A DNA stretch of 64,000 bases from Azolla caroliniana (taxonomy: Eukaryota; Plantae; Polypodiophyta): the NCBI GenBank assembly GCA_043228905.1, contig JBHGNT010000010.1, positions 20,708,001-20,772,000 on the forward strand. The letters are read 5' to 3'. Below, in pieces: positions 2,978 through 64,000 of this stretch. Below the pieces are notes generated by a model. It worked only from the letters and a program-made list of their open reading frames with translations, made no database searches and was not told where the DNA came from. The number at the start of each line of letters is the position of its first letter. The stretch's first letter is position 1. Made by a program: the position numbers and the translations under genes.

Positions 2978-3471
2978 TCTCGACACGAATAAACGCAAGG
3001 CTCATTAGCATTTGATGAACGTGGGGGAAGCTATGGAAGGAGGGGGCAATGGCTTGATTGGCACATGGAGCTAGAGGCAATGGCAATGGCAATGGCTTAC
3101 CTCCACGAGGTGATCGACCACAAGCACACATAAAGAAAAACCCTAATATGTGTATGTTGAGGTTGAAAGAGAAAAGAGAGAGCCAAGTATGTATGTATGT
3201 ATGAATGTATGTATGTATGTATGTATGTATGTATGTATGTATGTATGTATGTATGTACTCCCACCCCACCACCATTCCCACCAAAATCTCAATCATTTCT
3301 TTACTTACTTCCTTCATACAAAAAACAGAGCAGCATTAAAGCATTAATGGAGAACTCCTCTCTCTCTCTCTCTCTCTCTCTCTCAGAACTCCTTCTCTCT
3401 CTCCTTTCTTCTTAAATGTGTGTGACCTCTTCTTAATTTCTCTTCTTTATTCTCCATCTCCATCTCCACTG

Positions 3472-3526
<55 letters not shown>

Positions 3527-3637
3527 GTGTCTCTCTCTTCCACCCACGTTTCCCATCGCCAGACCCACCCTTCTCCCTTTTTCTCTCTCTCACCAGTACC
3601 CCCACACCCTAAAACCTTCTCTCTCTCTCTCTCTCTC
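2952..3637. repeat. Microsatellite cluster upstream of and in the 5' leader of the GT47 gene: (CA)n, (TATG)n and several (CT)n tracts
   Basis: (CA)n ~2952-2977, (TATG)n ~3187-3256, (CT)n ~3359-3384, ~3475-3537 and ~3619-3637. Confidence 0.95.
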
Positions 3638-3640
3638 TTC

Positions 3641-17664: not shown

Positions 17665-20568
17665 TCATATTTCACTCGCTCCGCTGCTTCCACTGTCGAT
17701 TGATGATGACTTCAATGTGACCATCCTGTGATGGAAGTTGGGAGTGCTAACAATCTTCGACCCCTTCTTATGCTTCACAAGTGGAATGAGAGACTGTACC
17801 ACATCAGTCATTAGCGGGCGGTAATCGGCCTCCGGTTGGACACACATTGCAGCTATGGCTGCAACCTGTAAACATAATAGAACCATGGAAAAACATCATG
17901 TATATATAACTCACATTCAAAGATGTCAAAGTATGGCATAAAATGTAAAACCTGTATTAAGTCTTTTACGGCAAATTGTCCAGCCATCACAGGATCTACC
18001 ATCTCCACAAGTTTATCTCGATCTGTAAGTCGAGGAAGCGCCTATGAAAAACAAGGTTTTAAATGAATGTCAGAAGAATAGATTATATATGTGGGCTAAC
18101 ACATTTAGATGGTTATCTCAACTATCTTCCCCAAACTACTTACCCAAGAGACAAGTACACCTTGCCCTGGGGGTCGCTTCATATCTACAGGAACACGACC
18201 TGTTAGGAGCTCCAGCAATACTACCCCATAGCTATAAACATCGGATTTAGTAGTCAAATGCCCCGTTAAGGCATACCTGCACAGCATTTATGAAAGTACA
18301 ATTTAGAACAAGAGAAAATTAGAAAACCCAATAAGAAGAAGGATATTCATAGTTTTTTTTTGTTAACTCTGGAAGATTTATGGCTAAAGTGGCCGAAATG
18401 TAACTAAAACCCTGACAAGTAAGAGTAGATGTTAAAAAAAACAAGATGTCATACTCAGGTGCAACATATCCATGTGTCCCTAGAACTCGAGTAGAAACTA
18501 ATCCTCCTACTTTATCCGATCCAAGCTTGGCTAGGCCAAAATCTGCTACTTTAGCATTGAAGTTTGAATCCAGCAAGATGTTGCTACTCTTGAAATCCCT
18601 GTGTATAACTGGAGGTGTTACACACTCATGTAGATATTCAAGGCCTCGAGCCGAATCCAAAGCTATTCGCATCCGTGTGTCCCAATCAAGAACCGGAGGA
18701 TTGCCCGATGCTCCTGAAACATATGCGTGTAAAGTGTAAGATCAAATCCGTCTTTTATAAGATGGATATGATAGATATCATGAATCTTACCGTCTGAATA
18801 AAGGTGCTCTTGGAGATTGCCATTGGGCATGTATTCATACACCAGTAATCGATGATCTTGATCAGCACAATATCCAATCAAACCAACAAGGAATGATGAA
18901 TGGAGGCGGCTAAGCATATCGACCTGACCAAAAAACATGTGAATTTCAGAGATAAGGCTCAATGATTACAAGAGGATGGAAACCCAGAATAATTCATCAC
19001 GTGTAGGGTTTCATAATCGCAGAGAAAACAAGAAGCCATTTTCAAAACTTTTGACGAATGGAAATGAGCTCGCCTAAACTTCTGACTCATATTTTTCTAG
19101 CAATGTAATGAGATTCTATAGCTAGCTTTGAGGATGAGGTATCTGTTACATATGGAAGTTAGATATGCTTAACCTCGTCCACAGAAGCTGATAATGCTAA
19201 GATACACACAATATAAGCTATCAGAAGAGGATAACGATCAGACTCATAACGATATCACATATATACAGTTGCTATCTGGATTCTAGTGAGAATGCCGTCA
19301 AATATATCCACACCAACATAATGTGGTGGTCTAAAGCTACTGGTTTGACAGCAGACTTAAGGCTTGATATAAAATCGTCAGTTACATTGCCAAAATATTC
19401 ATGAAACTATACCTCAATGCGGAATTCATGGTCTCCTTGTTTACTTCCTCGATCAAGTTGCTTGATAGCTGCTAATCTTCCATCAGAGAGCATCCCTCTG
19501 TAGACTGATCCAAACCCTCCGTGTCCAACCACATTCCCTTGGCTGAAATTACATGTCGCAGATTGGAGTTGTTTGAATGTGAAGACTTGAGAGTCTGTGA
19601 GTTCTAAGGTTACAGCCCGAGGGTGAGATGATAATGATGGAGCATTAGGACTCTCGGGGACTTGAGAGTTCTTAATCCCTGTCAAAAAGAAAAAGGAAAG
19701 CAGGAACAGTTAGAAGAAATCTCCATGTCTTGTGTCTCTCTTTCTCGGTAATGAAATTGCATCTTAGCGGCAGCGTAGATGCATCCTCCAGGTTCAAATC
19801 TCGCTAATTTAAACAGTTTATTAGATGATACTGAGTTTAAAACTCGCTAATTGCACTTAGAATGCACTGAATTCAATAAGCTAGATGGCACTGACTACAA
19901 ATTCTGGACGACTGCAGTAATTTATAAGACGACACCAAGTTGAAAATCTCTGCATTTGAACTCATTGAGATTAGTCCGACACTGAGTTATCTCGAAAGAC
20001 AACAATTTGATTACATTAGATTGGCATCGAGTTCGAATGTTTACCTAGTTGTACTGAGTTCGTGTAACCACAGCAACTCTAAATATCTTTAATTGCACGG
20101 GTTAAAACCTCTCTGGTTGCACTAATTTACTTGAATTACATGAAACTGAGTTTAAGTTTTCTCCAAACGCGCTAACTTACTGAATAAAACCGTTCACGTC
20201 TCACTCTACTTGCAACAATTAGCTTTAACTAGATAGACATTGAGTTCGAATCTCTCCATTTGCCCTAAAATTAGCAGATGAGACTACAGAGAACCTATGA
20301 TTTTGAGAGAGGAACAGACGAAAAACACAGCTACGCAGACGTGTTCGTGAGATTTCTTCTACTTACTTTGGCTACGAGACTTTTTCTTGACCTTGTATCG
20401 GATGTGGCAATAGTAGAGGAAGACGAGAACGAGTGCAGAGACAGCAATGGTGGCGATGACGGCCAGGACGACCAAAGCAATGCTCGTCTTTCGCCCGTCG
20501 CCATCGTCATCTTCTGCTTCACTCTGTTGACGCAGAGTAGAAGAATACTCTAGCAGACTACGAATCAT
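17665..20568 (-). CDS. Ser/Thr receptor-like kinase (RLK/Pelle) with short N-terminus and single TM helix; resembles Arabidopsis At3g58690-type kinases
   Basis: Exons 20568-20367, 19678-19413, 18923-18791, 18713-18455, 18276-18144, 18041-17952 and 17865-17665, all GT-AG and in phase. [27 protein letters not shown]. Kinase motifs [75 protein letters not shown]. Confidence 0.95.
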
Positions 20569-36473: not shown

Positions 36474-36874
36474 ATGAATGAATGAATGAATGAATGAATG
36501 AATAAGACTAGACAATTTTTTGTGTGTAGAAGCTCCATTTCGGTTTAGAAGCTCCATTTCGAGCTCTTTATTGATGCATATCAGAGATTTTGGTTGTTAC
36601 AAAGTCCTGTTCCTTTAACTTCAAGAGCCCAACCTAACATAAATAAAACAGCACAGAGCAGGGCAGAGGATATATTAAACGAATCAGAGCATCTTTATTT
36701 CTGTCTAACTCGGTATGAAATAGACAGCAAAAACCCACATCGTTTTTCATCCCCAAGGATCGAAATGGCCTTGCTGTTTCTTGATTTCTAGCACAGAAAG
36801 GAAGGAAGGAAGGAAGGAAGGAAAGGCAGGGTGTTGTTGAAATGGGCGATTCCTTGCTGATTTCTTCGCCATTG

Positions 36875-38003
36875 ATGATGGTGAGGAATGTTTTAGGTGT
36901 GAGAGCAAATCCTCCCCCTGACCTTAACAAGAACACAGAGTGGTTTCACTACCCTGGTGTCTGGACATCTTATATTCTTCTTGTTTTCATTGGATGGCTC
37001 ATTGTTTTGTCTCTCTTTGGATGCTCCGCGGGTACTGCTTGGTCAATCGTAAATCTCCTCCACTTTGCGGTGAGTGCTCTAAACAATTATTGTGTTTGTG
37101 TTAATGAAAGGATGCTCATTTGTATCATGAATTTAAGCAGTGAAATTCTTATTGCATCTAGACAAACACTCTGTCGCTTATATCATTGCACAGATCGTGA
37201 AAAATCAAGAAAGAAATTAACGATGAAGCCCATTTGCGTGTTGATAATTGAAAACTTTGTGGGGTAGATCTTTTAAGAAACCTACATAGTTAAAGAATCG
37301 AAATCTGCAACCTCCTGTGCTCATTTCATGGCTTAATTAATGTTGATCGGCCAATTATTCCTTCCAAACATCATGTGCATGATATCATGAATAAAGTTAA
37401 AAACCAATCACAATGTTGATCACCTTAGGATAGCTCATTGTAGAAGATATTAACTTGCCATTCTCTGTCTTTCTTGTTTTATGGCACAATCAGATAACAT
37501 ATTGGTCATTCCATTGGAGAAAGGGAACCCCGTTTGCAGAAGACCAGGGCATATACAACAAACTGACGTGGTGGGAGCAAATGGATAATGGGAGGCAACT
37601 CACACGCAATCGCAAGTTTTTGATGGTTGTTCCAGTAGTCCTGTATGCAGCTAGCTCTCAACTCAAAAACTTCCTTAACTTATTTGTTAATGTTAATTCT
37701 ATTACTTTTCATCTCTCCCGCAAATTTATAATTCCCTGTTATTTTATATGTCTTGAACAGAGAAACTCTTGGCCAAAATTTCCTTACACTGATTTTTTTT
37801 TTCTCAATCCTGCACCATTACATGAAGTTTGATGTGGAATATTGTTTCCTTTGTGCAGGTATTTGATTGCATGCCACACGACAAACTATAACAACCCATG
37901 GCTTGTCCTTAATACACTTGCTGTACTAGTCTTGGTAATTGCCAAATTCCCAAATATGCACAGAGTAAGGATTTTCGGCATTAATGCTGATTATGAAACG
38001 TAA
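36875..38003 (+). CDS. ORM: ORM/ORMDL family protein (negative regulator of serine palmitoyltransferase)
   Basis: Exons 36875-37069 (upstream in-frame ATG at 36842 also possible), 37494-37642 and 37859-38003. Motifs PPPDLNKNTEWFHYPGVW, FHWRKGTPFAEDQGIYNKLTWWEQMDNGRQLTRNRKFL, AKFPNMHRVRIFGIN. Confidence 0.96.
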
Positions 38004-40972: not shown

Positions 40973-42069
40973 TTTCATAAGGCCATTTTATTGTGTTCTG
41001 ATGATCATTGTTGACCGACACTCGTTGGACGACCAACCAGTGACGATGTTGTTTGCAGCAAAAACCAAGCTTCTTTCTCACTGCTGATTATTTATTCTAG
41101 ACACCAAGAGAAACTAACGTAGATAATTGTAAAAGGTGATATGTGTTATTGTTTCTTTCATTTATATTGACATGGTCCTTTTTAATTTGCCATTCATCTA
41201 TATGCCTCTTAATGAGCATGCACATGTATGGAGGCAATGTTCATGCACACAATGCTTCTTCGGGTAAGGCTTTTTAGGGCATGGTTGTAAAAAGAAGAAG
41301 AAGAAGTCATTTCTGTAAAAAAATTAAATAAACCTAGACATGTGTGTATCATGTTCCATGCCGTGCGTAGTTAGTGAGATTTGAACCCTAGGTTAGAGGT
41401 ATATTATGCCCCAAATACCAAACCGAGATGAGAAGCCTTTGAAAAAGGAAAACAATGTCGAAAGAGGGTATATATATGTATGCTACTACTACATTGCCCG
41501 ACATTGTTTGGAATGCATGGCTCAAGGTTGAGATGTAGTGGGAATACACGTACACTCAAACATATAGTCCTAGGGGATCGCCCAATTCCGGAACGTTTCT
41601 GTGGGAACCACTCAGACTACTCTCTTTTCGCCCATTTTGTGTGTGTAGCTAGAGTAGAGTTATAAGACCTCAAGGCTCAGAAGCGGAACCATAAAAACAT
41701 GACGATGGAAATCAATTGGCCTCATAAATAAATAAACAAACAAATATAAAATAAATAAATAAATCAGATAATGTCGTGGCCAAAAGTGTAATAATTAGCC
41801 CGGGAAAACGCACGCCCGCTCTTTTTGCGTTTTGCGTTTGTCTGCCTTTTCTTCTGGACTCGACGAAAAAAACAGAGAGCGAAAGCGAGAGGGGGGGGGG
41901 GGGGCAGTTCCGTAAATTCGCAGAAAGAGCTTCGGTGGGAACAGAACCCTAGGTCATCATCGTCATCACCACCACCACCATCTCTCTTGACAAGCTTCGC
42001 CATCGCCAGATCTCTGCAAACCCTAATTCCTCTCTCCGCACGTTGCAGGGAAACACAGGTCTACTCGCG

Positions 42070-45000
42070 ATGCTTTCAGGTGGCGGACGACGATCTCGCA
42101 ACCCTGTTCGCGTCCTCATCGCTTGGTTCAAGAGGCAGCCTCCGAAGGTCAAGTCTTTCCTCGCCGTTTTCGCTGCTATTTTTAGCCTTGTCTTCATCAG
42201 ATTTGTCGTCAGAGATCATGACAACCTATTCGTTGCTGCTGAAGCTATCCATTCCCTCGGTATCGTTGTTCTCATCTACAAGCTCATGAAGGAGAAGACT
42301 TGTGCAGGCATGTGGTTTTCTTTCATACATATTTCATAAATTTTCATACGTAACAAGCTTTTTCTTCATTGCTGAGCATGCCATATCAGATATTTTTACG
42401 CCTCATCCCTGATGCTTCTACAGAATTAGGGCTTACTATTACGATCCTCCATGGAAACACAGAATTATGTAGGGAAAATGATATCTCTTTTGGTTGAAAT
42501 ATATAATTAGGCTTTTACATCATGTCTCCCCGTGGAATACATGGGATTTAAGCATCAATCCTGATAGGAAGTAAACAATATTCAGCTCGGAATACAGGAG
42601 CAGGGGTTTATATCATGTCTGATGATGGAATATGAAGCCTTGATCTGGTGCAAAAGGAACAGTATCTATTTGCAAAACGATCCATTTTTCAATCGAAAAT
42701 GCATAAGTCATGATTCATATTTTGTCGAGCTATGAAGTATGATGATATTTAAGCCTCGCCGTGATGTAAAACAATCTATTTCCGAGTTGAGACACAGAAT
42801 TAGGTTTCCACATGATGTATCCACATGGAATATCTGGCTTTTCTCGCATAGAAATTTGCAAAATTTTCTACTTGAATTACCTTATTTCGATATTATTCTA
42901 TTTTGGCTATGGAGTATGTGGTTTTTCACTCTGAACTTACAGATTTAGGGTTTCATACTGTGTGTAGCTATCTGGTTTTCGAGGATCACTCGTTTTACAA
43001 ATATATCTATTTCTATTGGAGCTACAGAATTGAATTTTCATGTTATGTATCCAAATTCTTCCTAGAATTTTGGAAATGTTTTAGTTTAGATGTTATCCTG
43101 ATTGTAGAATTTTTTGGTTTTTCCACTTTGATAGACAGTTTTAGTGTTTCATAATATGTTCTTGAATATCTGGAATTTAAGCCTCAATTTTGATACAGAC
43201 GGACACGTTATCCAATTGTAATGTTTTCATATCATATCTTCTACAGAATAGCTTGTATTCTAAGCCTCGATTGTGGGTCCTGACAAAGGATCAGAATTCT
43301 GGCTGAAATATAATTTCTGACATGGAAAATTTAGTATTAAGCCTCAATTCAAATGCAAAAGCTTGGCATATGGAATATGCTGATGCAAAAGGATCCACAC
43401 ACTTAGCATTTCCTATTACATCTTGTTGATAAGAGTGTTTCCAAAAGTGCAAAACTGCTAAATATCAGTGTTAAGTTTTCATATCATGTTTGTGATGCAT
43501 TAATAGTTATTTAAGCACTTCTTTGGGATTTCAGAATCCTCAATTAACCCTGACGCAAAAAGATCTATGACAATCCCTCTTTGGAAAACTTTGGAAACAT
43601 CAAGTTATTCAGCGTACGTGGTCTCACATCAGTTATGCATCCACAGTAACTGTATTCATATCTATAATGTCTAATTCCATCATAGAAAATCATAATTGAA
43701 ATACAGTGTTAGGGTCTCATATATCTCATATAAGTCCTGAATGGCGCATCTACTATTTATGGATTCTGAACTCTTGATTCTCACTTAAAAGAAGCATTTG
43801 CAAATCAGTAAAAAGCATCAAGTTTTTCAGCAAATTGGATCTTGATTCAGCCATGTAAAAACGACGAAGTGCAAAAGTATGAATTGAAATACTGTATTAG
43901 TGTGTCAAATAAGTCTGCTATATGACATCTATTTTCCAAATTGTCTATCTGATGCAATTTTTTTTAAAATCAATTTCTTTCAAAACTTATCAAAACATCA
44001 AGATATTCATCCAATATATCTTGCATCATTCACACAGCCATAATAACGTTGAAATTCCATATCTTTAATGACTTTCTGGAGGTGTAAAGTTCAGTTGAAA
44101 TATAAATTGCATCATAAACACATTCAGAATAAATTTTAAATGCTAGGCCATGTCCAGTGGCACTGCTGATACCTGTGCGTGATCTCAGTATTTTTATTAT
44201 ATGATGTGGTGCTTTTTTAGGATCAAAATGGTGGCTTCTATTTTTGCAGGCTTGTCGTTGAAGTCCCAGGAATTGACTGCACTTTTCTTAGCAGTTCGGC
44301 TTTATTGCAGTTTTGTAATGGAATATGATATTCACACCCTATTAGACACAGCAACACTAGTGACAACATGCTGGGTCATTTATATGATACGCTTCAAGCT
44401 GAAGACAACTTATTTGTCTGACTTGGACAATTTCAACATCCTTTTTGTGGTATGTTAAATTCCATTAGCTAGAATGAATATCCTAGTGTATCATGATGGC
44501 ATTGTTTCATGATGGATCTGTTCTGGTGAAGATCGGCCCCTGCGTTCTGGCTGCTGTCCTCATTCATCCTACCACAAGCCATCATATCGTGAATAGGCTT
44601 CTTTGGGCGTTCTGTGTCTATCTGGAAGCTGTATCAGTTTTACCTCAGCTTCGAGTAATGCAGAACACTAGGGTACATTCTACCATGCCACCTTTAATCT
44701 TGTTGTCATATCAGGAAGATATCTATACACAATTCAACTTTATTTAGTGATTCTTGGCAGGTTGTTGAACCATTCACGTCACATTATGTGTTTGCATTAG
44801 GAGTTGCAAGATTCTTAAGTTGTGCACACTGGATTCTTCAGGTAATCTCAGCATATTTGCCATTTCTATGCAGTTATTCTGTTCTATAGATAGGAAAGGA
44901 TTTTTCCTTCCACAATTTACATGTCAGTAATCTGATCCTGAGTTGCAGTCTGTGGCTGGGAATCACAATAAAGCTCCACAATGGTTTTACGTGGTTCCTA

Positions 45001-49272: not shown

Positions 49273-51326
49273 ATGGCCGAACAAACCACGCCAGAATTTT
49301 TTCAAAGGATCCCAAAGAATGTGTGGGAGAAGCAACAATACTATCAGAGTGCTGCAAAGTTTACACACATGAAAGGGCCCCATGACAAGTATGTTAGCTT
49401 CATCATTCCATCTGTTCTTGTTGCAACCGCTGGTGTTCTCATGGTAAGGACTGATTTTTTTAACTGTTTTATGTAAATATTCCATGAATTTATGATAACT
49501 TTCTACCTATAATTTTTTGTTTGATTAGGCACTTTAGATATTGTGGTAGTAGTTTGCAAATCCTATGCGAGAATGCATATTTTGTATGTAGCACCAAATG
49601 ACCAAAAATATTTTGCCTGAAACATTTAATGGATCAGATATTTTGTAGATACGAAGCTTGTAGTTTTAATGGAAAGAATTGGTGTAAGCACTTATATGTA
49701 ATCCGGAAGTGATCGGATAATATATAACCTGATGCAACCATGTTTCTATGGATCAATCAAACTTGATGATGTCTTCATTGATCAGACATGGTAGACACAC
49801 AACTTTTACAGAAAACATTGATCTATGTTCTCTGTGTTGGTCCTTTTGGGATAATATTATATGATAAAAATTTATGGATCAAAGCTTCACTGATTGCAGT
49901 ATTATAGGAAAACATCTCCATAGTTAGGAATTGGCAATGGTTCGGTTTAGGCTTAACCGGTTTGGCCTTATCCAAGCCAAACCGGTTAAGCCTAAACCGT
50001 TTCGGGGTTCTCAAACCTGAACCAAACCAAACCAAACCAAACCGATCCCTTAACCGGTTTAGAAACCTGTTTGGGACAAAAAAGCTGAAGATACCCAAAA
50101 AAACACCACTACCACTTCCTCCTACTCTTCTTCTCCTCATAACTCCCACCCCCTTGGCCTTACCACGGATGAGTCAAACTCAACTCCAAGTCCCACCTCC
50201 ACGACTCCCTCTTTGTAGACTACTATGGTTGGTTGGCTGACGTCCATGAATCCCCTGCTTCCCACCACCCGAACCACGAGGCCTGAGGCTATGGCGACCT
50301 ATCACTCTCTGTGATCCAATCCTTCTCCAAAGAATGTATATAACACTGAACAGCACGGAGGTCCCCTGATCGTCCACTATGCAAGCTCTCTCTCCCTTTC
50401 TGTCCCTCCCTCTCTTGTCACTCAACAGTATGTTGCCTCTGGCTTCCTGTCACTCTCTGTCAACTTTCAAGTTCTAACTTATAGTCTGATTTCTAATTTT
50501 CTAAACCCTAATTCTTAAATCACATAAACGGCTTAAACGGTTTAGCCGGTTTGGCAAGGCTCAAGCCAAGCCGAGCTCAAATCGTTTAGGTAGGCTCAAA
50601 CCTAAACCGAGCTGAGCCGCTAAGCCGTTTAAAACCATTTGAGCTAAACGGTTTAGGCTTGAGCCGAGCCTTTGCCGATCCTTATCCATAGTTATATCTC
50701 CATCAAATTTTACAGATGTAGAACTTGCCCTTTTTCAAAGAAATACGGATGCTGTTAGACGTGCAAATTTTGCATCATTAAACCAATATATTGATGCCCT
50801 CACATTAGTCTAAGCCTTAATCATGGGGATAAATATGATTAGAGACACCTACTATGGGTAAAAATTCAGCTATACTAAACAGTAAACTAATATGTTTTAT
50901 GAAGTCACTACTGTTTCATTTTTTAATCCACAGGACAGTTAGGGTCAGTTTCCTGTAATCGCTCTAGTTTCGATTGAAATGTTGGGGTATTTCTTGAAGA
51001 TGTTCCATAACCTGATACTAGTCAGCCAATGCTGCTCCCTTATAGTCTGTATATATCTTTAGAGGATGTTAAATTAAAATTTGTTACTAAATGTGAAATA
51101 TTAATAGGCAAAACATTTGATGTATGGATATTCTTCTAATCAATTGGTGGTGAACATGAGTTCTTTATTAAGCGTGTTGAGGAAAAAGTGTGTTTCTGTG
51201 TGGTACCATGATATTAGGTTTATTTTTTCTAGAAAGTTCTCATTCAAGTGATTGACATCTACACTTTTACTTCTGTAGGTACGTGGATTATGGAATTTGT
51301 CACATGGAACAGGCAAAAGGGAATAA
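49273..51326 (+). CDS. Cytochrome c oxidase subunit VIIa-type (plant COX7-like) small mitochondrial protein, 72 aa
   Basis: Exons 49273-49443 and 51279-51326 give MAEQTTPEFFQRIPKNVWEKQQYYQSAAKFTHMKGPHDKYVSFIIPSVLVATAGVLM|VRGLWNLSHGTGKRE*. This matches the plant pattern EKQ.YFQ....TYLKGP.DK....IP..L......GIYNMS.G.GKKE. Likely 5'UTR exon ends at 48583 (G|GTATGG). Confidence 0.88.
49925..50684. mobile_element. Non-autonomous hAT DNA transposon (760 bp) in the COX7-like intron
   Basis: 8-bp TSD TCCATAGT at 49917-49924 and 50685-50692. Imperfect TIRs TAGGAATTGGCAATGG and CCTTTGCCGATCCTTA. Dense subterminal AACCG/CGGTT/AGCCG motifs at both ends. Confidence 0.9.
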
Positions 51327-54300
51327 ATATACAAACTCTTGCCATTAGATTTGTCTTGTTTTTGGCTGAAAGGCTTTGTATTACTGATTGATGGTCAATA
51401 ATTTGTTATGGTGATATACATACATGCTTTCATGGATCCTGTTTTCACAGCTAGAGTGGTTTTTCAATGAAGAAATCCCGAATCTCGGCGTAGGAGTAAC
51501 ATTATAAGTGGCTTGCCACAAACAATTTAGAAATTCAATAGCTCCTTTTTATTGAATGGTTCTACACTCCTGACACTCCTGTTATCTGACATTGTTGATC
51601 TTTGTCTTGTGCCTGTTGTGCAAATGTCCAAAAGTATTGCTGCTTACAGGTGAAGTCTATAACTAGGTTATCGGATTTGTTTCCAGGATATTATAAATAC
51701 GTTGATTTTGCGCGCTATGATTCGTTTTTTTCTGTTATTGATTCAATTCTTTAAAATCCATTGGATCCCAATTTTTGCTCTGTTATGGACGCTTTGTTTG
51801 GGAATTGCAACAGTATGTTTTCGCTTAATTGTAAAGGACCTTCTATATATGCTTGGGTTAAGTATAATCGAAAATTAAGCATATATGCTCAATTGAAAAT
51901 GACCAAGCATAATTAAAGGGATTATGTTGTAATATCTCTTAAATTAGCCGTCCCTTTAGCTACTGTTTAGCATAGGTAACTTCTAATTAAGAACTTGGTC
52001 GGCAAGTCATTCTTCTAATATGATCAATCAGACCTTGCTCATTTTTCGATTGGATGAAAATTGATTGTTATTAAATTGTGTACTAATGCGGTGAAGGATT
52101 CTTCATTGCCTTGTGCATTTGTTGTTTCTAAACTGTCACATTAATGTGCAATAATGTGTGCTTTGGAGCTCAGACATTGATCATTTATATAAGTAGTCTT
52201 GAATTGCTAGAACATTAGAAGCATATTTGAGGTCATTTTGCCTATCTATTTTGTTTCTTGATATGTAATATGTAATTTGTGATATTTTTTAAAAATTGGC
52301 TTTGTAAAAATGAGAATGCAATCAGCTTTAGTTAATCCTTTTATTTTTAAATCTGAAACCTATGAATGTGTGTAATAATCATACATTGGATGCATTAAGT
52401 GATTATTGGAAATCATAGTATTACTTACTTTACATGAAGTTGATCCATTGTATATTTGTCAGTTTAACTGATCAGAATAGACCTTTGAAATAGTTGAATT
52501 GAGGTTAATTAATACTGTGAGAAATTGTTAAGTAAATTGAAGGAATTCATATCTCTATGAAGAAGGATTCATATTGGTAGAGATCTATGGGTTCCATTTC
52601 TCATAACTTGTGACCTCTTTCAATAAGACTTGTTATGGGTTGTGCTCTACCATTAGGGTATGACAATGTTAGATATATGGTATAGAGTTGTCAATAATTT
52701 GGTGGATTAGCATTGTTAAGTCTTGAATTTTTTGTCAATAACTCTTGGTCCCTATTCTTCAAAGGCATTTTAGTCCCCATCCTTACTCTATTGAGGTATC
52801 TTCCTTCCTTAATGTGCATTTCTCACTCTTGGTGCATTAAATCGAAATCATTGCAGTTTACTATGGATGATAATGATGTAATTCTTGGTAGATCCATGTG
52901 GGACTCGAGCTGCATTTGAGCTCGAACTCTTGTACATTTTGATATCCTATCCTCCCATACCAACCTGCATAATTGTTAGGCTCTTCTTTCTTCTCAAAAC
53001 TTGCATAAGAAACATCAAAATAGTTGTAAAATCACATTGATGTATTGCATATCCATATAAATGATCAAGATTTGTAATGATGGTTTGCATATCCATATTG
53101 ACTTTCTCGAAACCATGCACTCCCAACTTTAAAAACAGTTTATGACGTAGAGGAACTTTCACAATATGGATCAAATTTAATTTGCATATTGATTTTATAA
53201 GAAAAACAAAGAACTTGAAATTACATTGTGAGATTTAGCAATTTCCAAGCCACTTCACCATATGTTCAATATAGTTGTGATGAATACCTCCACATTCTCT
53301 CCATTTGTCAATTTATCTAAAGCCCCTAATTTAGAAGTTTACGAAATGCGAACATCTTACGTCTTATGTGCCGATTACATATGACTAGGAACTCTATAAT
53401 GCCTTGTTGTTCTCCAGAGGGTTAGCATGATGCCTCATTGTTTACAAAGTGACAATAAAGGTAGACATATCATGAATGCCTAACCACCTACAAGTTTGGG
53501 TGGTATAAAGAATGTTTGAATGGAGGTGTCATTACACTTTCATATTGTACGAGCACACGTTTGAAACAAGCTGTAGGGGCACATTTTGTATAATCGATGC
53601 CAAAGTGATGAGGCGAAATGTCAGGTATGCCACGATGACAGAACATGAGTTGAAGCAAAAGCTAGGTAGGTGGTGGTGACCGATAAGATGATGCTAATCC
53701 ATACGCGTGTTAAGAAAAGTTTGTTCGAGAAATGTAGAGGGAGGAGTAAGTAACAAGATGAAGGATGGGTGGGCACTCTTTTATTGTGAAGCCTCTAGTG
53801 CATGTACATATTTTATTTACTTCACTACTAGCTGTGTTTTGTTTTGTTACCTAGGGATGGGACCAAATTTGAAGTGACACAAACTCCTCCTTCCTTCTCC
53901 TTGTGTCTGTGTTTGTGGCGATTTCTTTCATCCAGCGCGTCAGAGAACGAGGTAAGCTCTTTCTGTTTTAATTTTTATCTTTATTTTGTTTGATTTCTCC
54001 CCCCGGCCCCTTGCTTTTCTAGTGGATTTCTCTCTATCTCTGGTCTTTTTCTGTCTTTTTCTAGTGGAACCTAACCTAATAGAAACAAAAATCCTTCTTT
54101 TACAGAAGAGTATATGCCATTTCCCACTTTCTTTTCTAGAAGAGTATAAATGCGCACACTTTGCTGTTCCAGCTACGATATGCTCCAATGTTTTTCAAGT
54201 GATCCAAGAAAGGCTATGTTAATAACGTCATGTCTGCAACCCAACACAAGGGTCCATATGAATCTATGCATCAATCATAAAGTTTCAAAATTAGAAGTAT

Positions 54301-55164
54301 AGAGACTCAAGTTTTTCTTATTACCCTAAATTATGCTTTGACAATTAATCTATTGTTATTTCAACATTGTGTGTTTGTTTGTTTCTGCAATCTTTAAAAA
54401 CTTTTGGGCTTCATTCATAGCCTAAAATAATACCTGGAGCCCAAAATAAGCATCAAATCGGTCCACTGACTATTTTCTAATAGGGCTATTTGCTTACATG
54501 TTGTTGGAAATCAATTGATGTTTTTTGGGTCCATCGTTGGAGTTTTTGGGAAGCTATTCTTTACTATTGCCAAATTTCTATTTGATGCAATCATGATGAA
54601 ACATCACAACTTTACAAAAATTTAGCAGAAACATTGTGAATTTTCTCTAGGATTTTTTTTGCTTCTCGTGATTCCCACTACCAATCTAGCCTGATGTATG
54701 TGGAAAGCATGACCACAATTGCAATTGCGAGCTAGGAGTTTGGTAAAAAATTTGTAAAATCTTTAGGTTTTTTTCCTCCTATACTGATACTTCATGGCAG
54801 AGACTGTTTCCCAATCATCAATTTATTCTGGTTGATATGGGCTGCAATAATGAGCATTATTTCCTGTATGAGAGCTGAGCTTGTCAGGTATTTTCTTTAA
54901 TTCCAAGTAAATAATTTGACCATATCAACAGCAATTAGATTCTTCACTCGATGAATTGCTTCGAAAGGCACTCATTCCCAAATTTGGCAATAATTTGCAA
55001 AGAATGGCATTCAACAAGGAGAACATGAATTTTATTGTGGGTAAATTAACCAACTGCCATGAATGCATCCATCTTGCTTGTTGATATAAAGACACTCCAC
55101 TAGACATTGGTTTATATTGTATGTTCTACCATAATGTCGACCATGATCGATTGGTGAGATATTG

Positions 55165-55650
55165 AATTGGAAGCCAAATATCGGGAGAAGAATTTTCTAG
55201 AAGCTGGAGAGAAGCATCTCACTGTCAATGTATCGAGGAAGTTTTTGATAACTATAAATATGGTGCTAATGACCTTATTTGCAATATAAAATATCCCATC
55301 TTATTGATGTGATCAACTGCGATAAGGGTAGAATCTATTCCAAATGCAATATATGCTCCCATTTGGCTTGATGATAATTAATACTGCACTAAAGATACGG
55401 TACTAGAACTTGGTGAATCTCTTATGCATTACCATAACTCTTATGTTGATTCATTGATATGGAAGCCGAGGTATGGGAAAAGGAATTTGCAGAAGTTAGG
55501 GAGAATGATCTCACTGACAACTTCATCAGGAAGTTTTTGCTTACTATTAATATGTTACAAGAAGAGTTTAGGACGGTAATGACCTTAGTTGCAAGATGAA
55601 ATGTGCCATCTTAATGATGTGATCAACCATCATAAGAGCAGAATCCAAGA
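55165..55650 (+). repeat. Old ~293-bp-period duplication with decayed coding-like sequence (possible Copia gag relic)
   Basis: TGGAAGCC..GGGA.AAG.A.TTT..AGAAG...GAGAA..ATCTCACTG.CAA...AGGAAGTTTTTG..ACTAT.AATATG...TAATGACCTTA.TTGCAA...ATCTTA.TGATGTGATCAAC at ~55168 and ~55460. Both translate with stops to related peptides. Confidence 0.5.
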
Positions 55651-56299
55651 CATGAGATAGTGGCAGGTCAATGATCAAAACTTTTGAGATTAATTATTAA
55701 GATCTGTCAAGGAGCAGAATACCCGGTGAGGATGATATTGTTTAATCTTTGTCCTAGGTGCATACATAATGCTTAAGTAGTTTTCACAATTTTTCCCCAC
55801 TCACAAGTCTCTCTGATGAGGTCTATTTTCTTAATGATCCAAAATTCTCCTTTGCAGCAAGAAAAATGTTAAACCATTAAGATCTTTAAAATATGCACTG
55901 TTCTTTTACTGTCGTGGTGTCATTAGTAATTTCTATCAACCTCTTCCTTGACATGTTGGAGGCATATCTCACAGAGCTTGAGTTGAGATTAGTTTTTATT
56001 GAGATCATATTTTAATAAAAGTGAGCATATGTCAGCTAGTATGATGGTTAACGAATCTCTATTACTAGTGCAGATCAAAGTTATATATGAATATTTATCT
56101 GCTCGTCAAATATCATAAATAATGATACCATTGCAGGTTATGTTATAAATATTGAGAATCAACTAGATAGGCATATAAAGTTACACTCACATAGATGTAT
56201 ATGTGTCAATAAAAGCTTTCTATTATATATGAGACTAGCTCACAATATAAGTCCTTCCATGCGCACACACCTTAGCTTTGTAGTCTTTTTAGAAGCTGC

Positions 56300-56375
56300 A
56301 GCAAATTATGAGGTGAAGAAGATTCAGAAGAAGAAGATTCAGGAGGAGGTCGGGACATGAGCCCAAGGAACATAC

Positions 56376-56408
<33 letters not shown>

Positions 56409-56796
56409 ACACAAACACTACTTACTCTAGTGGTGTACATTTCCACAATCTTATTCATTCGAGGACATTTATAGATCGAAGAAACACTTTAGGTGCACTT
56501 ACCCAAGTACTCTCTCGATGTAATCTGAACTAGTTGACTACGGAGTTAGTTGACATAGATAATAGTCACAGAAGTGGTGTAAGAGAAAGACAGTGGATTT
56601 TTATATTCTCTGTTTGGTCTTATTGTCAACTTAAATGTGGAAGTGACTTGATAGAAGCGGGGATATTCCTTTTTTGGCAACTGGCTCATCATTTAATATT
56701 GACCTAGATCCCTAGATACAAGCTAAAGCCAGATAGTACTTATCTTAAAGCCAATCACAAATACTTCAAGAATAACTACATCTTAACTTTCCAACA
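56300..56796 (-). mobile_element. Possible solo-LTR-like insertion in the 5'UTR intron of the FLX-like gene
   Basis: On the minus strand it begins TGTTGGAAAG and contains CTATAAAT followed by a CT-rich tract. It shares the motif ACCACTAGAGT..AGTG..TTTGTGTTCTCT with 13211-13236. No TSD or clear 3' CA end found. Confidence 0.35.
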
Positions 56797-57331
56797 GAGA
56801 ATATTCTTCTAATCGACCTAAGTAGTCAATCCCATACACTACTTCCCTTTTTCCTAAATACATTCTGGCTTACTCATCTACGCTATCACACATTGAGACC
56901 TTATCACCCCATATGGTCAGGTTGCACAATAGCTACTCCTCGTATGGGTCTTCTATCACAAAATGTGCACTCTAAGAATACATGTGGGGATAAAACTGAC
57001 GATTTGGGGTGATCATTGGCTATATCTAACAGATTAGACGCTAAGTAACTTCTAAAATTTGTGATATTTTATATTGAGATGGACTTGGCTCTCTAACATA
57101 TACATACATACATACATATATATATAGCTATTTAGTTCTTAGTTCTACATTTGTATTTAATATGGTATTTCGTGATGTTTCAAACTGATTTCTTGCTTCT
57201 TTCTATTTCTCTGTAGTTAATGTATTACTCACTTTATTTCTTCTTTAATTTTCTTTCACACACAAATAGGCGGTGAGTTTTTCTTTGCTGATATTGATTC
57301 ATGCTTTGCTTGTCTATTTCTTCAGTTTTAT

Positions 57332-60300
57332 ATGGCAGGTAAGGGACCAAGGCATGAAGCTAAAGATGGTCATCGTCCAAAAGAGAGCCATTATTCAAAG
57401 GATGGTCCTCGTCGCCCAACCTCTCCTGGTCCTCCACATATGTCAGGCTTTGGACGTCCTTCGTCAAGTAGATTAGATCTTGATGGACCATTATCTAATA
57501 TAGGTCACCCTTTCAGTGGTCAGACTCCACCTATGATGATTGAGCAGAAGCTTGCTATACAACATGCTGAGATACAAAGACTTCTGGGTGAAAATCAACG
57601 CCTTGCAGTTACTCATGTAGCCCTAAGACAAGAACTTACAGCAGCACAACAGGAAATTATGCGATCACATCAAAGTCGGTCATTTGGTGATACAGAGAAG
57701 GAGCAGCGCTTCACTATCACACAAGTTGCCCTAAGGCAAGAGCTTGCTGATGCTAAACAAGAAATTAATAGGCTACAGGAATCATTAGGTGCGATTCAAG
57801 TGGAGAAAGATCAACATATCCGAATGGCTGCTGAAAGGGGAGCACAAATGGAAGCTGAATTAAAGGCAACTGAGTCTCTTAAAGCTAATTTTGAGAAGCT
57901 GAGATATGAGAGGGATGAGCTTATGGCACGAGCTGATCATTTAACAGCAGAGATGAAAAGGCTTCCAATAAAAGACCAAGAGATAGCTTCATTAAAAAGT
58001 GAGGTTGATGACTTGCGGCAGAGGCATCAGCAAGCTAGGTATGCCTCATGCCTCATGCTGTGGAAATGTGTATTTTGTAGCAAACAAATAAGTTATAGCT
58101 AATGCTGGTGCTGTGCTATGTGAGACAGAGTTGATTATGAGCACCAAAAAAAGATAAATTTAGAAAACCTAGAACAAAAGCAGGCAATGGAAAAGAATAT
58201 TTTTACAATGGCTAGAGAAGTGGATAGACTACGTGGAGAGCTGGTTACCATGGAGAGAAAGCTTCATGGAGCTTATACAGGTTGGCTTGTTTATGGGGCT
58301 TCAGTTTTCAACATGTTAAAAATATGCTCATCCGTCCTTTGACACTCTTCTAATATTCTTATTTTTCTAGCACAAAATGGTGGCACTGTTCCACCTCGAA
58401 CGCAAAGCTCCACTCCAGAGGCAGGCAAATATGAGACAAATAGTTATGGAGGACAGCAGGTTTGTAATTCCTCAGTTTTACACCATTTTATAAAATGTAA
58501 CTTGTCCTGATATCGAACAATTACAATGCTAATTATTGTATTTAGAGATAATTGGGAAACTCTTAGAAACAAGAAAATGGAGGTGTCATTGAGTGAAAGA
58601 CATAAAGTCGTTTGGATGTTATGATAGTAGGCATGTTTTATACATCAGTACATGTTTAGCCAGAAATTCAGGTGGATGATAGTATTTTGCTATTTATGTG
58701 TGACTTGATTACACAGGAAAAAGTTACGAAAGTGAGTTTCAGACCTTTCTTTGAATTTAGAAAATGGTCTACTCACAAGACGTTTTCACTAATTTCAGGA
58801 ATGTAACTAACTGAAACTTGAAAAAAATGCTGTTTAATATTTAAACAAGAAGCATTCTCATGCATAATTACAATTCTAAATATTTAAAATATTTTGTTGG
58901 AAAATGTTGATTGCTCCAATCTTTTGCTGCAAAGGATTGATAGTTATTTATTAAAATAAATCAATCCCTATTGTAGAAGGAAGGAAACCTGGTTTTGTAC
59001 CACAATTTACCAAACATGAATTTTGTTTCATATTATAATAACAATGACTGAAATAACTATTTTGAACATTCAAGCCAACTCTTAGTATCATGCACTTGAA
59101 TTCCTGGATATATCAATCTCTTAAAAATTCCATTCAGAAACCAATCAACTGCCTTTTAGGATTGTGCTTTCATATTCTGAAATATGTCAAGCATCCAGAA
59201 CAACCCAATCAAAATGCTCTCAGAATTGGGCATTAATGCTCTTAAATATGTCAAGCAATCGGTTCCTCTCCAGAAGTGTCATATTTCTGCTATTTTGTAG
59301 AGGCTTGCGTGATACAATTCTAAAACAAATTTCAGTGATTTGTGGCTTAATTTACTTGGGAAGTTCTACAGCATTCATTCAAGCAGTTATCTGCATAGCC
59401 CAATCAAAATATTCACGCAAGGTAGACTGGAGCCGCTAAGCAAATTAATCCTATAGCTTACGAGAAAATCACTTGACAAATTTGAAAATGCTTGATCGTC
59501 GGCCAGCCATACACCTAAGGAAAATGGTTCAACTTTATTTCCATGTTGAAGGACTGAAGGCTATTTTTAAATTTTCCCTTTGATATGCTGCTGTGTATGT
59601 GAAGGCCTACATGGTTCTCCCACTTATTGGAAACTCCTTGTAAGTTTCTAAGATCTTGAATTGGAAAGAGGATTAGCATATTAAATGCTGGATCACTCTT
59701 GTGATGTTGTTCTGTATACTTGATCCATATTGCTAATTAAAAGAAGTTGTTTATGATTCTATGCTTCTTCCTTAGGTTTGTGTGATAAGCTGAAGTGTAA
59801 ACTCAGTTTTTGGTCAATGCATATTAGGATGTTTCCAAGAACATAAAACAGAGCATGGAACCTTCTGAAGGTAAATCCAATGCTGAAGCTGCCAAATATA
59901 GGAGTGGGGTGGACTCATTTCAACCTGGCATGCAAGCTACAGCACAAGATCATCTCCCTCCTAATCCTGAATTTACAGGGGAATGGGTTCAACATGCAGC
60001 ACCTAATGGAAAGTCATTCTACTATAACGCTGCCACGGGTGCAACACAGTGGAATAAACCATCTGTAACTTCTACAGTGGATCCTCGTGGATCTCTTCAG
60101 AGGCAGATGCCACAGGCACAAGGACAGACAGGGCAGAATTCAACTTCTCAGCCTGGTTTAACACAATCATCACAACAGCAACCGACACAGACTATGCATC
60201 AGCAACTGCCACCTGCCCAGCAACCCATCTCTCCAGCTACAATGCACCAAGGTGGACAGCATTCTCTCGCCAGTTATGGTGAGAAACCCCTTCTATTACT

Positions 60301-62317
60301 TGTTATTCAAGCAGGCTGCCATTGATTAGTCACCTCTTATTTATGAGGAAATTACACACACATCAATATATGATGGTGTAATCAATGGATCACCATCTTG
60401 TAGGTTGAGGATGCTGACTTTTGTATCAGACAAACCATCAAAATGCCATTCTAGTTTTTACCATAATTCTCAAGTTTATAAAATTCCCAGAATGCCACTC
60501 GAATTTTTGCCTGATATTTGAACCCTAGTTGCTAAATTCTGGAATATCACCACACATGAAGTGTGATTAAAGCCTAAATACAATGATATTAATTACAAAT
60601 CAATAATCAACATTATTAGCAAAGATAATGATGATTAGGTTTTCATTAACAAATAATTATCTTAATTGTGGAAGGTTAAGATTTAAGTTTTGAAGCCCTA
60701 AGTAACTTAATTAGTGACGAGTAATTAAGGATAGAATAATATGATCTGTAGTTTTGTAGCAGTTTAGGAATTTTATAATCTGGATTATGATTTAGGGAAT
60801 TATGGAACCTAGATTGGCTTTTTGAAAACAAAATAAGAAGAAAATCCTTGAAGGTTTGGTTTTAGGTCTGATTAGCCTCTCACCTCCCTTAAGAAGGCAT
60901 CTCCAACTATGCGCTTTTGTTATTGTTTGTCTTTGGTTTTCTAGTTGCTACCTTTCTCTTCTTTGAAATTGGAAACTCAGATGTCCTCTGGTGTAGAAAC
61001 ATTAAGATGACACTGAACGAACGCTGTACCTTTACTTTTCACATATGAGCTAGATTGACTGATTTGAGTGATTGGTAAATGCATTTCATCCTTGGATTTG
61101 CCCAATTATGATTTCGGTTCAATGGTTGGTAAATTTCCACCCATTTATTTACTTCTTAGGAGTGTTTCAGTCTGCTTAATTTGACCAAATTAGGATCCAA
61201 TTTAATTAATTTGCCATATGGATCAATTGCGACCCCAAATTAGGTTTGATTCAAGTCTTATCATGAATATTTAGTTGGAGATGGAGAGAGGAGAAGATTA
61301 TTTGATGTGTTAACATCATATGTGAGCCAAAATCTGATTAAGTCTTACTCATATTTTATGGGTGTACAAGGTTGGAAAGACAGCTGGGAGAGGAGATATT
61401 TCATGTATGGTTCATGACTTCAAACTGAAACATACGCTATACTAATTTCTTTATTAATTTGCCCACTATATAGTATGTAATTATAAACTCGTTTTGTGCA
61501 ATTCCAGTCATCATCATATTTGTTTTGCATCATGAGTAAATACACAGATTGAAAAGATGGTAAGTACATATGAGTGCTGGCAAAGAATTGCAAATGTACA
61601 TGCAATGTTTGCATATATGATGCAAATAAGGACTTGTGTATGCTTGGCAAATAATTAACCAACTCATGGCTATTAGAAATGTATATGAGAAGGTTGCCCA
61701 CTGAGTACAACTATGTTTCTTTACAATATTCACATTATGTTTGTAAACATGAAAGCAGAAATGAACGTCACAGAAAATGACTCATATGTTCTGTATTTAT
61801 TAACACGTCATGCATTCATTGCAGAGCATTAACAATCTCATGGTGATTAGAGATTTACATGGGAAGGTTGCAGAGAATTAACAATCTCATGCACTTTTAT
61901 ATGCCGTGGACTTTACTGCTGTATATGAGCTGGATCTTGCTAACGTTTTTCTTAAATAGAAGAAAAAGTTGGATTTTGACCTCATGAATGGAGATTATAT
62001 CTGCTAAGCCTTTACAGAGAACTACAATTCATCATGATAAATAACAATCTTGGATCAGAATATAACTTTAAAGGAAAAATAATGAACTGAATGAGTTTTC
62101 TTGTTGTAACTTGTAATGATATCCAAGCAATCAATTTAGTATGGATTGTGTTTTTAATATTTCTTAGCCTGCTGTTTTCTAGGTGTCAATCTGTTGGTAC
62201 TTGGATTATCAGAAGGGATCACTGATCGTGACCTAGCAAGCTTGTTCCACCCATATGGAACTATTTTACATGCCAAAGTCATGATGGACACAAAATCTGG
62301 AGCACCTGAATATTATG
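57332..62317 (+). CDS. FLX-like (FLC EXPRESSOR family) coiled-coil protein fused to a WW domain, Q/P-rich linker and RRM; 3' end not found in the window
   Basis: In-phase GT-AG exons 57332-58038, 58129-58280, 58371-58459, 59828-60278 and 62183-62317; 5'UTR donor at 53952 and acceptor at 57325. FLX motifs EQKLAIQHAEIQRLLGENQRLAVTHVALRQEL and QAMEKNIFTMAREVDRLRGEL. WW: WVQHAAPNGKSFYYNAATGATQWNKP. RRM first half: GVNLLVLGLSEGITDRDLASLFHPYGTILHAKVMMDTKSGAPEYYG. Confidence 0.85.
60425..60872. mobile_element. Degenerate foldback/MITE-like element in an intron of the FLX-like gene
   Basis: Left arm ATCAGAC..CAAACC.TCAA..GCCATTCTAG..CCATAATTC..TTATAAAATTCC is mirrored by right arm GGAATTTTATAA..GAATTATGG..CTAGATTGGC..TTGAAGGTTTG..GTCTGAT. 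No TSD resolved. Confidence 0.5.
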
Positions 62318-62939
62318 GTAACCCTTTCCTATTCAATTATTTCCTGTATAATAATTAGTTTCTATTTATTTGAAAAATATTTGAGCAACTATAACCTAGG
62401 GATTACATTCTTGATAGGTAGATGGCTGATAAACAGTGAATGGGAGCAAGTGTTATTTTGAAACCTCATCACCTTGAGTCCACTGTCTAAGTTAGCGTAG
62501 AAAGAAAGAAAGAAAGAAAGAAAGAAAGGAATATTAATGTCTTTTAAGAGGCCAAAATGGCTTTTAAGACCAAGCATGTTGTTTCATCTTTGAGAAACAA
62601 CAAACCAAAATAAATAAATGTAACTAAGCAAACAAATAAATTGAAATAAATTAAGATGCGACTAAAGAATCTCGTCATCGTTACATATAAAATTCTCAAA
62701 TCAGATAGTGTGCTTTTTGTCTTCGAAAGATATCTACTATGCATACTAAAGAATCCATATGTGTAACATTCTCAAATCAGATAGTGTAATTTTTTACTTC
62801 AAAAAGTATCTACCGTAAGTCAATCCAAAATGGAGAGGTCTCTGAAGTGAGGGAAACACCTGCAATAGTGGGAGATAATGGTGGGCGATGAGGTCGTGGT
62901 TCAAGAAGCTGAGGCCGATGCCAACGTGCCTGACAAATT

Positions 62940-64000
62940 GCTAAGGCCTGATCTATTCTAAGCCCTTTGCAATGTGTAGTCATAAGGCCATGTGTGTAGC
63001 CCTTGATTGACTTGTAGCATGCATAGTAGTAATAAGGCTAAAGAAAGTTGTGATTGTTCTTTGTTGATCAGCTTGTGTGGCCATATTGTTGTCCTGCAAC
63101 AATCTCCCCTTGTGTCTCTTGAGTTCTTGCAAGAAAAGCCCCCAGCACAGTTGGTCCTCATAATCTATTACCTTGCATATTGCGCCAAAGTTTGACTGAA
63201 AGAGGCAATGGTATCTCCCTCTTATCTCATAAAGAACAATACAATGATAAACATCGTATTCTTCAGATTCCACTCCTTGATGACACAATTGGCAAATTCT
63301 TTTTTTAAGAGGCATTCATGCATATCTGCTTACCTCAATCTCTAACTGATGTCAATTTGCAGCTGCTCTATCACACCGCACAGTGCATGGGATAGAGGTA
63401 TGTCCATATCTAAGGACCTGATGATGAATCCATCCTCCAATATGTATAAAAATGTCTCTTATAGTGGGCCATCTTCTAAGTTGATGATATTAGTTCGAAT
63501 CACTCTATTTTTTTCCACTTTGGTCATGTTTAGATTGGGGACAATTGAAGGTATATTGGAATGGGGGTAGTACATTTCTGCTTATGCCATGTGACTCAAA
63601 CCATTGTTGCATTTCAGTATACCAGCAATGAATGTTTCCATGTTCAGCAAGTTGTTTTGATAACATTAGAGCCAACCTTGAGTTCCCAAAGCCATTGTAT
63701 ATTGGTCGCTGTATGAAATAATGCCTCGGTGAGTATTGAGGCTGCTCAATTCTCTGCACGGATTACATCATGGGGCACTGATTCTTTGCTGCTCATCATG
63801 CGGGCAATCATTGAGACTAAAGGTCTCTCGAAACCTTTCCAGTTATTTGCCTTGTTAAGACTTGGTCCCTAGGTTTCTACTCCATAGAGAAGAGTTGGTG
63901 TGATGAAGTGTATCAAATAGCCACAATTTCAGTTCATGGCTCTTGGAAGTGCAAACTTCCACATTGTCTTTCAAGAGGACCAAGGGCTGCATATCCACAA
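62940..64000 (-). mobile_element. Decayed non-LTR retrotransposon (LINE) ORF2 C-terminal region, antisense within the presumed next intron of the FLX-like gene
   Basis: Minus strand reads HQLEIEVSRYA*MPLKKRICQLCHQGVESEEYDVYHC...YEIRGRYHCLF, the typical LINE ORF2 L.IE.GRY...ERIC..C...E.E.H...C zinc-knuckle region. Stops and frameshifts are present; it runs off the window end. Confidence 0.8.

Follow-up and report, generated by a model that had tools for sequence, protein, structure and literature searches.

The window, a 64,000-nucleotide (nt) stretch of Azolla caroliniana contig JBHGNT010000010.1 (positions 20,708,001 to 20,772,000, forward strand), carries a plus-strand gene in which a coiled coil assigned to the FLX/FLL type is followed by a WW domain, by a tract rich in Q and P, and by the N-terminal half of an RNA recognition motif (RRM). 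The coiled coil, the WW domain and the RRM belong to one spliced gene. As the initial annotation had read it, five exons (57332-58038, 58129-58280, 58371-58459, 59828-60278 and 62183-62317) connect in phase; they give 511 open codons without a stop, are all bounded by AG/GT, and end in phases 2, 1, 0, 1 and 1. The features of the gene are as follows.

53929..53951, plus strand: 3' end of an untranslated first exon; the loose end of a Logan contig equals the window exactly at 53929-53949
53952..57325, plus strand: intron in the 5' untranslated region (UTR), 3,374 nt
57326..58038, plus strand: coding exon 1, with ATG at 57332, an N-terminus rich in Pro and Gly and the greater part of the FLX/FLL coiled coil; phase 2 end
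57608..57790, plus strand: internal duplication in the coiled coil; the copies, 57608-57682 and 57716-57790, lie 36 residues apart and share 14 of 25 residues
58129..58280, plus strand: coding exon 2, end of the coiled coil, with a Gln where nearly every other member of the family has Glu
58371..58459, plus strand: coding exon 3, linker; phase 0 end
58460..59827, plus strand: intron of 1,368 nt separating the FLX-like part from the WW-RRM part
59828..60278, plus strand: coding exon 4, with linker, WW domain and Q/P-rich tract
59978..60061, plus strand: WW domain of PRP40/FBP21/FCA-like type, amino acids (aa) 367-394
60062..60278, plus strand: Q/P-rich low-charge tract; in homologue P0001 it has 41% Q+P and 5% charged residues, and a predicted local distance difference test (pLDDT) value below 50 in the model
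62183..62317, plus strand: coding exon 5 (135 nt, phase 1/1), encoding the N-terminal half of an RRM of CELF-RRM3 type with degenerate RNP2 and RNP1 motifs
62318..64000, plus strand: start of the last intron, with a high-copy repeat inside; the rest of the RRM and the tail lie in an exon beyond the window

The splicing was examined in Logan contigs, which are short assemblies, from 7 of the 15 listed runs. The RNA status of these runs is a software guess, and they are taken as spliced transcripts because the introns are skipped exactly. Each of the four coding introns is missing, with exact boundaries, from 4 of 4 runs, which come from four studies and carry four organism codes. In 6 of 7 runs the contigs lack the GT..AG introns at the two junctions that make the fusion, 58459/59828 and 60278/62183; run X10, probably DNA, covers the introns and has neither joint. 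The joint of the 5'UTR intron (53949/57324, GT..AG) is present in runs X4 and X5. Record 19 of X5 (1,895 nt) is one contig spanning 57324 to 62318, from exon 1 to exon 5, and record 20 of X3 (1,137 nt) begins in the coiled coil and includes the WW exon; run X1 equals the window without any difference. The two junctions left by the initial annotation for confirmation are thus found in contigs that span the fusion, with neither an early transcript end nor a separate WW/RRM gene.

Contig loose ends past 62318 carry the RRM on in frame in 4 of 4 runs, and the last exon therefore lies beyond 64000, as had been expected; none of the candidate acceptors examined in 62330-64000 continues the RRM. Judged by P0001 (588 aa, 70% identical), this exon would add about 78 residues. 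The repeat in the last intron occupies 62500-64000, up to the window end, at a depth of hundreds to thousands. It holds a minus-strand frame of 111 codons (62983-63315) with no Pfam match, which resembles a retroelement remnant. Read-through of the intron 58460-59827 would stop the protein at 332 aa. As for a shorter isoform that would contain the coiled coil alone and end within that intron, the intron has no cover in 4 of 4 runs and only low cover in X4, and contigs cannot prove the absence of such a form. We also note a second spliced paralogue of about 80% identity in X1, X4 and X5 (over 57687-58280 and 62182-62318 of the window), in agreement with Adiantum, Ceratopteris and Pteridium, where the gene has two or three copies.

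Domains of the encoded protein

Profile searches with the coiled coil return named FLX-like 1, 2 and 3 proteins (E values of 1e-55 to 1e-77), and the window protein is 39% identical to Macleaya FLX-like 2 over 242 residues (blastp, E 3e-45). This long coiled coil, with the N- and C-terminal blocks conserved in the family, is accordingly classed as FLX/FLL type, in keeping with the family named at the outset. FLL2, which works with FCA in 3'-processing condensates, is a more pertinent link than the one then drawn to FLX in the FRIGIDA complex. In quick trees, the window protein falls inside a fern clade (support 100), the fern subclade that the 36-residue duplication marks. FLL2 forms a clade of its own (99), and the window protein is not grouped with seed-plant FLL2. 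Unlike in seed-plant FLX, the coiled coil is not the sole folded domain, the WW domain and the RRM being encoded in the same transcript.

In the model of P0001, linkers of low confidence lie between long helices, a three-stranded WW domain and a complete RRM fold; a search of the ESM Atlas gave no usable match for P0023. Residues 64-285 of P0001 are predicted to form a parallel homodimer with a score of 0.50, as against 0.00 for the best control, and at least 64% of contacts are common to the runs, with pLDDT of at least 75. In the calibration of this score on eukaryotes, the mark was reached by 17 of 29 solved dimers and by none of 30 monomers.

The WW domain in exon 4 is matched by Pfam WW at E 4.1e-9, with 36.7 bits over a cut-off of 26.9, which bears out its earlier identification. 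The closest solved WW domains are those of WBP4, PRPF40A and TCERG1, and a SETD2-type WW is also among the matches. PRPF40A shares 11 of 26 positions; Arabidopsis FCA shares 12 of 26, counted by eye on the sequences of supplement 8 of PMC7673134. The FCA WW domain is described as binding PPLPP motifs of FY (PMC3346229). An ESM Atlas search with the WW domain gave generic WW clusters only, under 0.9.

Pfam RRM_1 matches exon 5 with E 1e-5 (25.7 bits, cut-off 20.7) over profile positions 2-36 of 70. Among single domains in the PDB, RRM3 of CELF1, CELF2 and Bruno match the RRM best (87 bits for P0322), and in a tree of 144 RRMs, built on 84 columns, which are few for that many rows, 17 of 17 fused RRMs form one clade within the CELF-RRM3-like domains (SH-like approximate likelihood-ratio support 98). 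We therefore assign the RRM to the CELF RRM3 type, in line with the motif resemblance to CELF/Bruno-like proteins pointed out in the initial annotation, and the fused RRMs share one origin. Among 15 fern proteins the mean identity is 0.72 for the coiled coil, 0.73 for the WW domain and 0.75 for the RRM; the disordered regions (N-terminus, linker and Q/P tract) have values of 0.44-0.53. None of the 40 listed variants lies in the WW or RRM exon.

Distribution and origin of the fusion

Exon 1 has 19 homologues of more than 413 aa, of which 18 have both WW and RRM and one has WW only; the named ones come from Adiantum, Ceratopteris, Selaginella and Pteridium. A profile search of 1.84 billion representatives, followed by a hidden Markov model scan for domains, adds Psilotum, Chara braunii (CBR_g26401), Spirogloea muscicola and further proteins. 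The full order of coiled coil, WW, Q/P tract and RRM is found in Adiantum, Ceratopteris (three fusion genes, with KP509_37G045200 as the orthologue), Pteridium, Psilotum, Selaginella, Chara and Spirogloea; coiled coil plus WW models occur in Diphasiastrum, and coiled coil plus RRM models in Ceratopteris and Closterium. One C-terminal RRM is present in all full-length homologues scanned, and none has an N-terminal RRM1-RRM2 pair. The same gene occurs in six metagenome loci of a distant plant (L002-L007, of two near-identical types). In L002 the introns occupy the same five coding positions and phases as in the window, and the RRM exon is exactly 135 nt; the Q/P tract has additional introns. The fusion is thus real, and the protein, first read as a chimera, does not stand alone, being a member of a conserved family that reaches back to streptophyte algae.

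With a broader profile, WW or RRM was found in the top 8 only of the best 120 of 295 matches and in none of the other 112, which include angiosperm FLX-like 1, 2 and 3, two Ginkgo-type models and one Taxus protein. The fusion is likely absent from seed plants. In Arabidopsis, FCA and SSF are given as the only genes with both RRM and WW (PMC7673134). The homologue searches turned up no named bryophyte protein; for Physcomitrella the same source lists two FCA-type RRM+WW genes only, and this moss may lack the fusion. The search for the three-domain order that the initial annotation had suggested across land plants therefore succeeds in ferns, lycophytes and streptophyte algae, while none of the seed-plant proteins among the best 120 of 295 matches carries it and no named bryophyte came up. 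The domains are all known, and the homologues stand in public databases only as hypothetical or single-domain-named proteins. The architecture is undescribed, as had been surmised, in the literature searched, which was mostly without subscription papers such as Fang et al. 2019 (FLL2), possibly covering non-flowering homologues.

The protein shares with Arabidopsis FLL2 (AT1G67170) and the FLX/FLX-like family a homologous coiled coil, a Pro-rich N-terminus and a predicted dimer; it differs from them in its 36-residue duplication and Glu-to-Gln replacement, and the seed-plant members listed have neither WW nor RRM. FCA and SSF, of RRM-RRM-WW order, have a WW domain of similar type beside Q-rich low-complexity sequence, and FCA has FLL2 and FY as partners. 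FCA carries a pair of RRMs at its N-terminus, where the window protein has its coiled coil, and the FCA sequences examined have no RRM behind the WW domain. CELF/Bruno-like proteins, especially those bearing WW (Plasmodium CELFs and L001), have the same RRM3-type C-terminal RRM after WW, and a putative PY-type end in the fused family is a further likeness; the fused protein, however, lacks RRM1 and RRM2, and the fern subclade no longer has the stacking aromatics. PRP40, FBP21 and TCERG1 provide the best solved WW matches and share the aromatic triplet in strand 2, whereas the window protein has a single WW domain, no FF domains and no zinc finger.

We infer that an FLL coiled coil was joined once, before there were land plants, to the C-terminal half of a CELF bearing WW. 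Plasmodium CELFs are reported to have RRMs on both sides of the WW domain (PMC4630921), and L001:132-953, a transcript-like contig, encodes a WW-bearing CELF-like protein of the order RRM (part)-WW-RRM3-like. The likeness of its WW domain is partly by construction, because L001 was found with a WW pattern from the fused family. FCA, which the initial annotation had named for its WW plus RRM, was considered as the direct source and ruled out, since the FCA sequences examined (moss C-termini excluded) end without an RRM after WW; the WW-then-RRM3 order is that of WW-bearing CELFs. A search with the WW-RRM region of Spirogloea returned two Spirogloea copies and generic RRM proteins, with no FCA or plant BRN, and the trees accordingly contain neither FCA nor BRN.

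Whether the fused coiled coils are monophyletic was tested under two models. LG+G4, with the long branches kept, rejects monophyly at p-values of the approximately unbiased (AU) test of 0.0017 (22 rows) and 0.039 (19 non-algal rows); a mixture model, with 14 fused rows and without the long branches, does not reject it (p-AU 0.123). Two of three trees place the coiled-coil-only proteins P0112 and P0156 together with the fused proteins of algae, and in the third only P0112 is so placed, with Chara; this grouping bears on whether the fusion is ancestral. A bolder and rather unlikely history would make the fused form ancestral to FLX/FLL. It would have arisen once in streptophyte algae, the coiled coil replacing the RRM pair of a WW-bearing CELF, a protein of the kind that also gave rise to FCA. 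Seed-plant FLX/FLL proteins would then be truncations, and FLL2 and FCA, as partners in polyadenylation condensates, would be what is left after the splitting of a single-gene scaffold that ferns have kept.

Proposed function and its alternatives

The fusion protein may act in the nucleus as a dimeric scaffold on which proline-rich factors of RNA 3' processing are brought together in condensates, and would then be a one-gene counterpart of FLL2 plus FCA; we give this reading, the best of those considered, a probability of about 45%. The coiled coil is predicted to form a parallel homodimer, which would therefore display two WW-RRM arms. A C-terminal R/K/H-X-PY motif would serve nuclear import, the WW domain would bind PPLP-type motifs such as those of FY, and the Q/P tract would add weak multivalency. 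In Chara, Spirogloea and several others, where the RRM is intact, the protein would also bind U/G-rich RNA, and the RRM of the fern subclade would be mainly a surface for protein contact or self-association. A single chain would in this way do the joint work of Arabidopsis FLL2 and FCA. The model for this proposal is FLL2, which is reported to be required for FCA condensates (PMC11962161) and to affect poly(A)-site use, its known partners being 3'-processing factors (PMC12167784). The proposal bears on the question of how FLL2, a plain coiled-coil protein, promotes FCA condensates and poly(A)-site choice. A fusion kept from Chara and Spirogloea to ferns is independent evolutionary support for a link between the FLL family and RNA processing that is older than flowering.

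Several observations weigh against the scaffold reading. The localisation, partners and condensates of the fusion protein are drawn by analogy with the Arabidopsis proteins. The coiled coil groups specifically with neither FLL2 nor FLL3, the deep nodes of the tree being open, and the dimer prediction, made on a 70%-identical homologue, may be a generic coiled-coil signal. A coiled-coil Glu kept in 86 of 89 unfused and 12 of 13 other fused proteins is Gln in 14 of 14 proteins of the fern subclade; judged by its position, this column may match FLL2 E201, mutation of which impairs FCA condensation. The WW domain is as close to PRPF40A as to FCA, and its ligand may therefore be a splicing factor or the C-terminal domain (CTD) of RNA polymerase II (Pol II). 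The R/K/H-X-PY end would speak for nuclear import in the family, being found in 23 of 26 homologues with a loosened pattern of 0-5 spacer residues and coming close to the consensus of the PY nuclear localisation signal (PY-NLS), which has a spacer of 2-5 residues (PMC5288373), but the tail of the window protein itself lies beyond 64000. Some models lack WW or RRM (Diphasiastrum P0035, P0037 and P0184; Ceratopteris KP509_36G058000, which is P0022), which suggests separate module losses or incomplete models.

The RRM adds to these points. In CELF1 RRM3 the bases stack on F404, Y406, F433 and F446 (PMC2731918), where the window protein has L, L, M and I, and F404 or F446 is kept in 0 of 17 proteins of the fern subclade. 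Outside the subclade, 7 of 9 fused proteins keep positions 404, 406 and 446; RNP motifs are degenerate in ferns, Psilotum and Selaginella. Since all four stacking aromatics are replaced, RNA binding by the window protein is doubtful, and so is the coupling of an FLX scaffold to RNA binding that had been proposed for it. The RRM is nevertheless conserved like the other domains, which suggests that its function in the fern subclade has changed rather than been lost. The subclade poses a second question, that of an RRM without RNA-stacking residues that is conserved all the same.

A PRP40/FBP21-like WW domain could instead bind proline-rich spliceosome proteins, with the CELF-type RRM picking, or having once picked, UG-rich intron sites and the coiled coil dimerising the unit. 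The leading WW matches (WBP4, PRPF40A and TCERG1) are indeed splicing-linked, and CELF proteins regulate splicing, those of Plasmodium flanking their WW domain with RRMs (PMC4630921). Such a splicing adaptor is unlikely in view of the single WW domain, the missing FF domains, the degenerate RRM of the fern subclade and the 3'-processing factors that are the known partners of FLL2 (PMC12167784).

A transcription co-regulator of FLX/FLL4 type, scaffolding a FRIGIDA-like activator complex while its WW domain docks on the Pol II CTD or a CTD phosphatase, would accord with the placing of FLX and FLX4 in the FRI complex with CPL3 (PMC9176254) and with TCERG1- and SETD2-type domains among the WW matches. 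This role leaves unexplained why the CELF RRM3 and the PY tail were retained from algae to ferns, and the trees, in which the FLX/FLL4 proteins carry no such names, show no special affinity to that named clade; we regard it as improbable.

It is less probable still that the coiled coil alone functions, as in any FLL, with WW and RRM dispensable and on their way to loss. Models without WW or RRM in several lineages, the lack of both in the seed-plant matches listed and the degenerate RNP motifs in ferns, Psilotum and Selaginella would fit such decay, but conservation of WW and RRM equals that of the coiled coil, and neither contains a listed variant. An artefact of two neighbouring genes or mis-assembly, for which the short Logan assemblies and their guessed RNA status might speak, is refuted by the precise removal of GT..AG introns in 6 of 7 runs, single contigs over the fusion, dozens of full-length homologues and the intron positions of L002, and has a negligible chance of being true.

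Surroundings of the gene

The window is gene-dense for a fern. Neighbouring genes lie at 3437-5353, 10626-11369, 18322-18741 (minus strand), 36785-37264 and 41953-42336; Pfam identifies a GT47 exostosin, a SWEET/MtN3 transporter, a protein kinase and an ORMDL protein among them, and the remaining frame, without a Pfam match, resembles an endoplasmic reticulum-retention receptor. Clusters of short, partly palindromic repeats of the aaaccg/cggttt type at 49950-50070 and 50520-50670 flank a GC-rich stretch and are possibly the ends of a small transposable element.

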